Part shown: positions 2,655 to 57,137 of the stretch, one piece after another
Layout of the letters: each line of letters begins with the position of its first letter
Position numbering within the stretch: position 1 is the first letter of the stretch
NCBI GenBank assembly: GCA_951406725.2
Contig: OX597833.1
Location: forward strand, 32,798,001 to 32,862,000
Length of the DNA stretch: 64,000 nucleotides
DNA from: Octopus vulgaris
Taxonomy: Eukaryota
Direction of reading: 5' to 3'
Notes under the pieces: generated by a model
Told to the model about the DNA's origin: nothing
The model's input: the letters and a program-made list of their open reading frames with translations, nothing else
Database searches by the model: none
Made by a program: the position numbers and the translations under genes

Positions 2655-2867
2655 GTCGTGAAGTATATTTGCCACTTAAATGTGGCTAACCCCTAAGGGT
2701 GGATGCTACTGTAGCTTGTAGCCCCATGAGGACACCTACTCCAGCTGGCTATTGACACACTTTCTGTGCCCTATCAGAATTTGCAAAGGGAAGCCATCCT
2801 TCCCATCTTCAGCCTGTATGATACACATGGACTCGAGTTTCTGAGTATTGACCCGTCATCAGCGTGT
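2655..2867 (-). repeat. PLE pseudo-LTR-like repeat (hammerhead plus structured module), between (TA)n tracts
   Basis: Closely similar to 38133-38340 and partly to 38930-39085. Contains a hammerhead motif. Confidence 0.75.
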
Positions 2868-3593: not shown

Positions 3594-3844
3594 GCTTTTG
3601 TTACCAATCATATGAATACGTTGTGTCACGATTACATGAACTTAATTTAAACACACAGGTACCAACACACATGTCCTATATAAATATATATTATGAAGAT
3701 TAGTCCTTAATACAAAACTAATTTTTATTGCTTTCGACTGGGGTAAAGTGTTATGCGCTTAATCTTCCCAGGTACTCCAAATCCAGTAAAATTGGTACGT
3801 TTAACATTCCTCTCGAACAATTACAGGAAAACTATTCTGTAATC

Positions 3845-4006
3845 AGAAATATTAAATTTCTAAATATCTCATAGAGATAAGTACGGTGGTGGGGCGATAG
3901 AGTGGTTGTATACTGTCAACTTAACGTGACAGTAAGGGAATTACACCACCGCTGTTTAGCCCTAGGAAGCATCGACGCTTCCTGTTGGCCTCGACACATT
4001 TCCTGT
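3845..4006 (+). repeat. Dispersed repeat related to the 56864-57137 palindrome
   Basis: Shares gtacggtggtggggcgatag, gtatactgtcaa, cgtgacagta, tacaccaccg, tagccctagga and tcgacacattt with the 56.9-kb element. Confidence 0.75.
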
Positions 4007-4950: not shown

Positions 4951-5057
4951 ATACTGACTTCGGTAGTATAGATTCTAAAATTGAAACGATACACAGAAGA
5001 GTAACAGGGCCCTTGTGCAAGGATGACCCGCAAATTCGCGAAGCTTTCCATATTTTT
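4951..5057 (+). pseudogene. U6: U6 snRNA pseudogene (full length, 107 nt)
   Basis: Colinear with U6 from the 5' hairpin (CTTCGG) to TTCCATATTTTT. The ACAGAGA box reads ACACAGA and the catalytic AGC triad reads AAC. Confidence 0.9.
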
Positions 5058-16700: not shown

Positions 16701-51821
<35,121 letters not shown>

Positions 51822-56863: not shown

Positions 56864-56869
<6 letters not shown>

Positions 56870-57137
56870 GCCGTATACTGTCAATCTAACAAGAACGTGA
56901 CAGTAGGGGGTACACCACCGTTGTATAGCCCTAGGAGGCATCGAATGCCTCCTGACAGCTTCGACACATTTTTTCCCTGTGTCGAAGCTGTCAGAAGGCG
57001 TTCGATGCCTCCTAGGGCTATACAACGGTGGTGTACCCCCTACTGTCACGTTCTTGTTAGATTGACAGTATACGGCCATTCTATCGCCCCACCACCGTAC
57101 AGGTCTCTACGAGAGATTTAGAAATTCAATATTTCTT
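56864..57137. repeat. Palindrome (~105-bp arms) of the structured-module repeat
   Basis: agaatggccgtatactg...cttcgacaca is mirrored by tgtgtcgaag...cagtatacggccattct. The right arm extends with homology to 3845-3900. Confidence 0.9.

Follow-up and report, generated by a model that had tools for sequence, protein, structure and literature searches.

A covarying RNA domain 3′ of the hammerhead in octopus retrozymes and its candidate role in Penelope-like reverse transcription

A structured RNA module that recurs in the window analysed here, a 64,000-nt stretch of Octopus vulgaris DNA, is, judging from its covariation, a real RNA domain within a known class of mobile element, the non-LTR retrozymes, and one that has apparently not been described so far. 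The module resides on the hammerhead strand (the minus strand of the window at 2668) of nine diverged families of short repeats, 51–62 nt 3′ of the cleavage site of a type I hammerhead; a first-pass annotation of the window had noted such a site about 60 nt away in two copies. It reaches a further ~60–75 nt into a tail by which a long-range helix, P5, is closed, and the complete covariation-supported fold spans ~170 nt. The domain seems, on balance, to be an RT-binding or initiation element for the reverse transcriptase (RT) of a Penelope-like element (PLE) supplied in trans.

Three of the families occur in the window, namely A (at 2668, 38146, and 38970), B (at 30352), and C (at 3935 and 56900), each with at least 40 matches in its own genome; six more (D, E, F, G, J, and K) were found by covariance-model and profile searches. 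The flanks of A, B, and C reveal units of ~350–360 nt in partial tandems and head-to-head inversions, and in the tandem families that were measured, the period is 360 in B and G and ~350 in A. Of the 262 copies with 150 nt of flanking sequence, 121 have a type I hammerhead fold upstream, and all nine families are represented among them; many of the misses that were viewed are 5′-truncated, inverted, or decayed. In every family, the type I hammerhead is borne on a long rod and is followed by the module and then by the tail; because all nine share this architecture, the comparison indicates that the module was inherited within one retrozyme lineage and is not a cassette shuffled between unrelated repeats. 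The earlier description of a module shared by different repeat families overstated their independence, as these are sister families of a single lineage. Further diverged copies at L264:7423-7574, L011:3055-3209, L077:5429-5571, L362, and L363 probably represent additional families or subfamilies.

With the covariance model at E<0.01, nine matches were obtained in the window, six in 200 kb of neighbouring DNA, and two in 400 kb of dispersed samples, the window being enriched in module copies relative to the dispersed samples; a profile HMM gave 18 matches in 664 kb (window, neighbours, and samples) and none in a reversed copy. On a rough estimate, the genome may hold module copies on the order of ten thousand, and the module model is usable for annotating this class of repeat; the accessible text of an octopus repeat annotation mentions neither "ribozyme" nor "hammerhead" (PMC13282606).

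All seven stretches listed in the first-pass annotation were found at the positions given there, and the features of the window are collected in the table below. The stretch at 21589, listed as a partial copy, does hold a fragment of the P7 region but is not a module copy in its own right, as it sits inside a Helitron-like element, close to a retrozyme end known at L077; it is a passenger and not evidence of reuse of the fold. A reading of the 30352 copy as a MITE with AAGGG...CCCTT ends was dropped, as sister copies continue into hammerhead monomers.

Table. Retrozyme-derived and associated features of the window
Feature	Position	Strand	Remarks
Family A type I hammerhead	2830..2867	-	Predicted cleavage just 3′ of 2830; one stem I mismatch; missed by strict descriptor
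P1, family A copy	2754..2770	-	
P2 with internal loop and P3, family A copy	2720..2750	-	
P5 5′ strand, family A copy	2705..2711	-	Partner strand absent because the copy ends at site 1
P6 and P7, family A copy	2671..2700	-	
Site-1 insertion end	2655..2662	-	16 nt 3′ of P7, into (TA)n
Family A copy	38132..38340	-	Site-1 end in (TA)n; intact hammerhead 38303-38340; module 38146-38245
Family A arm	38969..39137	+	Complete domain P1–P7; P5 3′ strand 39095-39101; P8 39109-39119; site-2 end; right arm of an inverted insertion whose left arm (~38873-38972, minus) continues past site 2
Family B copy	30337..30468	-	Young (99% identity to other copies); site-1 end in (TA)n; 5′-truncated 44 nt after the cleavage site
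Family C copy with tail	3842..4006	-	P5 strands 3945-3951 and 3884-3890; site-2 end; fold z = -4.5
Inverted two-arm insertion, C subfamily	56864..57136	both arms	Minus arm ends at site 1 (~56864); plus arm with tail ends at site 2 (~57136)
Non-autonomous Helitron-like element	21512..21849	-	5′ TC, 3′ hairpin and CTAG; carries retrozyme 3′ fragment ~21576-21652 without hammerhead or P1–P3; young family (at least 40 copies scored, 96–100% identity, TC and hairpin-CTAG ends)

Read 5′ to 3′ in the sense of the hammerhead, the layout comprises the hammerhead, at the tip of the long rod upstream of P1, then P1, P2 with P3, an A-rich linker, the P5 5′ strand, P6, P7, the P5 3′ strand, and P8. P1, the first helix of the module, is a hairpin with a G–U wobble in families A and B and an A–U pair in families C to G and J. 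P2 is a stem with an internal loop on which the hairpin P3 is placed, corresponding to the AGG hairpin with TAGCC/GGCT arms described earlier. P5 is a long-range stem of 7–8 bp that bridges the module and the 3′ tail over 60–70 nt and encloses the variable hairpin P6 and the GCCAY hairpin P7; a mostly unpaired stretch separates P7 from the P5 3′ strand, after which the tail hairpin P8 follows. P1, P2/P3, and P7 had been recognized in the first-pass annotation, but P5 and the tail were missed because four of the listed copies end before the tail. Single-sequence folds of complete copies yield this layout in families A and C; P2 and P5 were not obtained in the single-sequence fold of family B, of which the whole monomer folds strongly (z = -3.9). 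By eye, the families have in common a rod of ~55–60 bp (folded in B only) that is capped by the hammerhead and immediately preceded by a small hairpin, as at L021:1140-1720, L034:1490-2000, and L065:1215-1660, and the whole monomer layout appears to be conserved across families. A TAACCC stretch that could be taken for a telomere template is only the variable P6 of family A, and that reading was dropped.

The helices are supported by covariation. From a sequence-only MAFFT alignment of 22 natural copies, RNAalifold recovered P2, P3, P5, and P7 unprompted, with double changes in 13 of 21 pairs. In the named structure, 86.3% of cells are paired versus 78.9% in shuffles, and double-change cells number 57 versus 21.9, a count reached in 0 of 500 shuffles; with slid partners, only 33–49% of cells are paired, against 86%. 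The shuffle control ignores the relatedness of the copies, and changes were therefore counted at the level of families. Across 28 pairs, 22 distinct departures from the commonest pair were found, consisting of 16 double Watson–Crick compensations (15 of them transition pairs), 4 wobbles, and 2 breaks, whereas a neutral simulation, biased in favour of coincidental compensations, gave a mean of 1.9 compensations with a maximum of 8 in 20,000 runs, and a mean of 16.7 breaks. The best-supported helix is P5, with 61 of 63 family-level cells paired (the family K row resting on one copy), a level equalled by 12 of 362,880 permutations of the 3′ strands among families. A covariance model trained with one K copy recovered K copies in all 15 K loci, and 82.7% of their cells are paired in the model-fitted alignment, which leans to the structure. 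Unpaired positions differ by 46% on average between families while the six helices are still paired, and 19 alignment columns, several of them unpaired, are invariant over the nine families. The registers of P1, P3, and P6 were set by hand, and one stem-end pair per helix is often broken. The pair swaps quoted in the first-pass annotation (GCCAC/GTGGC versus GCCAT/ATGGC, CACA/TGTG versus CACC/GGTG, and the three AGG hairpins) are all present in the sequence; the claim that pairing is kept in the GCCAY hairpin applies to P7 as a helix but not to its weak fifth pair, unpaired in 11 of 22 rows.

The functional strand is most likely that of the hammerhead, as far as sequence can tell, and the module order given earlier is the reverse complement of the RNA. 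The strand check proposed with it, by G–U versus A–C bias, agrees weakly with the hammerhead strand, the bias being modest in size (5 G–U versus 1 A–C at the family level). When single sequences were folded, 7 of 10 copies favoured P5 on the hammerhead strand and 2 favoured it on the opposite strand, with 1 tie.

The proposal of a conserved structured RNA outside the Rfam families was borne out by Rfam scans as well as by covariation. A scan of the window at gathering thresholds returned U6 only and nothing on the module, and at E<=5, the loci of the nine families gave 113 matches, nearly all to microsatellite-driven miRNA models and none to a ribozyme. The sole match over a module, ST7-OT4_3, scored 24.8 bits against a cut-off of 50 and was taken as chance. 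In the literature searched, with subscription papers, Repbase, and Dfam outside the scope, nothing was found that describes a conserved, covarying domain downstream of the hammerhead in retrozymes or PLEs.

Non-LTR retrozymes are type I hammerhead repeats of 170–400 nt that are expressed as circles, with a size of 350–390 bp in mussels (Cervera & de la Pena 2020, PMC7229834). The octopus elements resemble those of other metazoans in their tandem monomers of ~350–360 nt, their single type I hammerhead per unit, their non-coding nature, and their low GC content, and in sharing a genome with autonomous PLEs; no similarity to RT or GIY-YIG was found inside the monomers. Self-cleavage and accumulation as circular RNA are marks of the published class; for the octopus elements, assembled contigs of four presumed RNA runs cover the family B repeat, and two of these runs contain a 390-nt contig (monomer plus 30) that fits a circle or a tandem equally and was given no weight. 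In the available text of the published descriptions, retrozymes are presented through whole-circle MFE folds and homology to PLE pLTRs, and neither a covarying domain conserved beyond the hammerhead nor a connection with insertion ends is mentioned (PMC7229834; 10.64898/2026.07.22.740005). Non-LTR retrozymes have been proposed to be non-autonomous PLEs, and vertebrate ones have been tied to PLE pLTRs (Li, Clavereau & Pollet 2026, 10.64898/2026.07.22.740005). The hammerheads of families E and G carry a U3–A8 core variant already reported in PLE hammerheads (PMC4209133).

The ends of the copies point in the same direction. Among 225 copies of six families (F and J were left out), 86 end 10–23 nt after P7 (site 1) and 86 end at +51 to +80 (site 2), while 4 end at +24 to +50, 46 read through, and 3 end earlier; thus, 172 of the 179 copies without read-through end at one of the two sites. 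Site 1 falls within the loop that P5 closes, a few nucleotides upstream of the P5 3′ strand and at a modal distance of 15–18 nt from P7, and site 2 lies just beyond P8. Most copy ends run into (TA)n. The 5′ ends, by contrast, have no fixed position (among the family B arms, one starts at the cleavage site and the rest elsewhere), and the template is therefore likely an uncleaved multimer or a circle. In inverted two-arm insertions, site 1 is paired with site 2 in 69 of 74 classifiable cases (86 found) under first classes in which site 2 included read-throughs, and in 60 of 62 (78 found) under stricter classes in which family C is under-sampled, versus 31 expected (p ~4e-16). In some families, the queries fixed the end of one arm, and the free arm showed the opposite kind of end both where site 1 was fixed (A and B) and where site 2 was (F and G).

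This paired-end rule, counted here, is a known hallmark of PLEs, in which EN+ elements carry a tail of 30–40 bp on one end of inverted insertions (Craig 2021, PMC8557442; PMC3846280). The retrozymes share with PLEs heterogeneous 5′ truncation, partial tandems, AT-rich or (TA)n microsatellite targets, and two 3′ ends set apart by a tail that is found on one end of inverted insertions, and the relevant region lies just 3′ of the hammerhead in both. They differ from the PLE pLTR and tail in that their tails measure ~40–59 nt and that the region is non-coding, with a six-helix covarying fold for which no autonomous carrier was found. That the module belongs to PLE-mobilised retrozymes is well supported by these sequence signatures, and the ends provide evidence, independent of sequence homology, that PLE machinery moves invertebrate retrozymes.

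The role of the module as an RT platform is suggested by its position and by one biochemical precedent. In the anole element Poseidon, RT initiates internally, at two positions that coincide with the genomic ends, the tail being the stretch between them (Frangieh 2024, PMC11167929). The Poseidon protein, a predicted dimer, cuts both strands of AT-rich DNA, and the RNA needed spans +20 to +172, the hammerhead cleaving at +26, which places the protein-binding region just 3′ of the hammerhead; this sole in vitro study of a PLE narrowed binding to ~150 nt, and its accessible text contains no comparative structure (PMC11167929). By analogy, tandem or circular retrozyme RNA would fold into the domain, and a PLE RT/GIY-YIG protein would bind it and nick both strands of AT-rich DNA. 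One nick would prime cDNA internally at site 1 and the other at site 2, copying would proceed 5′-ward through the hammerhead into further monomers and stop at random points, and the two arms would be joined head to head. Among the three functions offered in the first-pass annotation, an RT-recognition element fits best because the copy ends map to two fixed sites in or just after the fold.

A folded cis element beside the RT start is familiar from the 3′ recognition structures of LINE/SINE pairs and from the RT-binding domains of telomerase RNA, and if the RT-platform reading holds, the module would likewise recruit an RT in trans. Unlike LINE/SINE pairs, it would serve two internal start sites and not one 3′-terminal site, and it has no sequence or Rfam match; no obvious tRNA-derived head was seen by eye in the monomers viewed, which are circularly permuted tandem units.

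Other readings of the fold have to be weighed against the RT platform. It is unlikely, though worth serious attention, that the fold serves the RNA circle, through rod folding, ligation, or shielding from nucleases and dsRNA sensing, with the ends set by local sequence and spacing. Retrozyme RNAs do build up as highly self-paired circles in coral and mussel (PMC7229834), the family B monomer folds strongly as a whole, and the autonomous PLEs of this genome obey the two-end rule without the module. However, generic stability needs no 19 invariant columns over nine families, and accounts neither for the fixed distance of 15–18 nt between P7 and site 1 nor for the bracketing of exactly one end by P5. 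A second ribozyme, self-cleaving or ligating, is very hard to credit. Although the multi-helix architecture, the invariant unpaired nucleotides, and the presence of a ribozyme in the element would suit it, and the first-pass annotation had raised it, the scan at E<=5, of low sensitivity in that it also missed the hammerheads, returned no ribozyme, and the core motifs of HDV, twister, pistol, hatchet, and twister-sister were found in 0 of 22 copies on either strand. Moreover, 46 of the 225 copies read through the module into further monomers, and the hammerhead already supplies one cleavage per monomer.

It also appears quite improbable that the pairing acts in DNA or in the antisense strand, through cDNA or ssDNA hairpins in strand joining or quasi-palindrome correction. 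Most pairs are Watson–Crick and hence the same on either strand, almost every compensation is a transition pair, and quasi-palindrome repair in DNA is able to perfect short hairpins; an antisense template has also been argued for the head-to-head inversions of PLEs (Arkhipova 2013, PMC3846280). The last three points count against the RT platform as well, as do the hand-set registers of P1, P3, and P6, the modest strand evidence, and the family B fold that lacks P2 and P5. On the other side, wobbles exceed A–C pairs on the hammerhead strand, P5, with its few base pairs over 60–70 nt, makes a poor substrate for palindrome repair, and the ends keep to fixed positions toward the 3′ side of the RNA but vary toward its 5′ side, as a sense template predicts.

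The RT-platform reading is rated no higher mainly because its partner PLE is missing. The genome contains many autonomous PLEs, whose cysteine linker and C-terminal endonuclease we take as marks of the Neptune type; open frames of 781 codons recur among them and encode RT and GIY-YIG, and the protein consists of a 765-aa RT plus GIY-YIG. The two ends of these elements lie +72 and +112 from the hammerhead that they carry and run into (TA)n, and their hammerheads use the U3–A8 core, as do families E and G; the two-end rule, the (TA)n ends, and the core variant were counted in favour of the RT platform, and the partner of the retrozymes is most likely, as a prediction, a Neptune-type PLE. With the covariance model, no module was detected in the pLTR of autonomous PLEs among 50 GIY-YIG loci (the best 150 of 6136 candidates were scored), where six strong matches are separate retrozyme insertions, and in 30 further loci with Neptune ends, the module again matched only as separate insertions, giving 0 of 80 PLE loci overall. 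An autonomous partner with the module was found neither by the GIY-YIG search nor in 20 long PLE regions, by tblastn of module loci, or from a second Neptune 3′ end, in which family 0 of 30 loci read through into ORF1. No Neptune relative was found in metagenomes, and 46 pattern matches there were all rejected by the covariance model. The lack of the module in PLE pLTRs counts against the RT platform because an RT that recognises the whole fold should carry it on its own RNA, and all that the Neptune PLEs share with the module is a short motif similar to the P5 5′ strand. In several Neptune families, this motif is able to pair with the start of ORF1, in a pairing, predicted and noted post hoc, that encloses both copy ends, as opposed to one end for P5. 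At the pLTR/ORF1 junction of L122 (minus), a 13-bp helix with one bulge is predicted to link the ORF1 start codon with the motif downstream of the hammerhead, and if formed, it could couple RT binding to translation.

PLE RTs are the closest relatives of telomerase. It is conceivable, though somewhat unlikely, that a dimeric Penelope RT uses the domain as a scaffold in the manner of telomerase RNA, in which P5 and P7/P8 of the domain would hold the two active sites at sites 1 and 2, so that one RNA would launch twin priming from both nicked strands. If true, such a scaffold would be the structural cause of the rule of a tail on one end only that all PLEs follow, with its fullest form kept by parasitic retrozymes. 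How PLE RTs pick their RNA and two internal start sites would become directly testable, as the nine diverged natural families provide a fold with both start sites placed, a substrate for binding, initiation, and structural work.

Several other elements were noted. The window holds at 35322-37845 a truncated, partly inverted Neptune-type PLE (RT and GIY-YIG) with ~95% protein identity to L127, with its own hammerhead at 35531 (minus) and a family A retrozyme ~300 nt off; similar PLE–retrozyme neighbours occur at L127, L128, L140, and L212. A separate family of abundant type I hammerheads, which have a long stem II and lack a downstream module, is seen at 46452 (minus) of the window and at L077:8408, L077:4755, and L080:2908. 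A diverged U6 snRNA copy at 4951-5057 of the window (84.8 bits) is probably a pseudogene.
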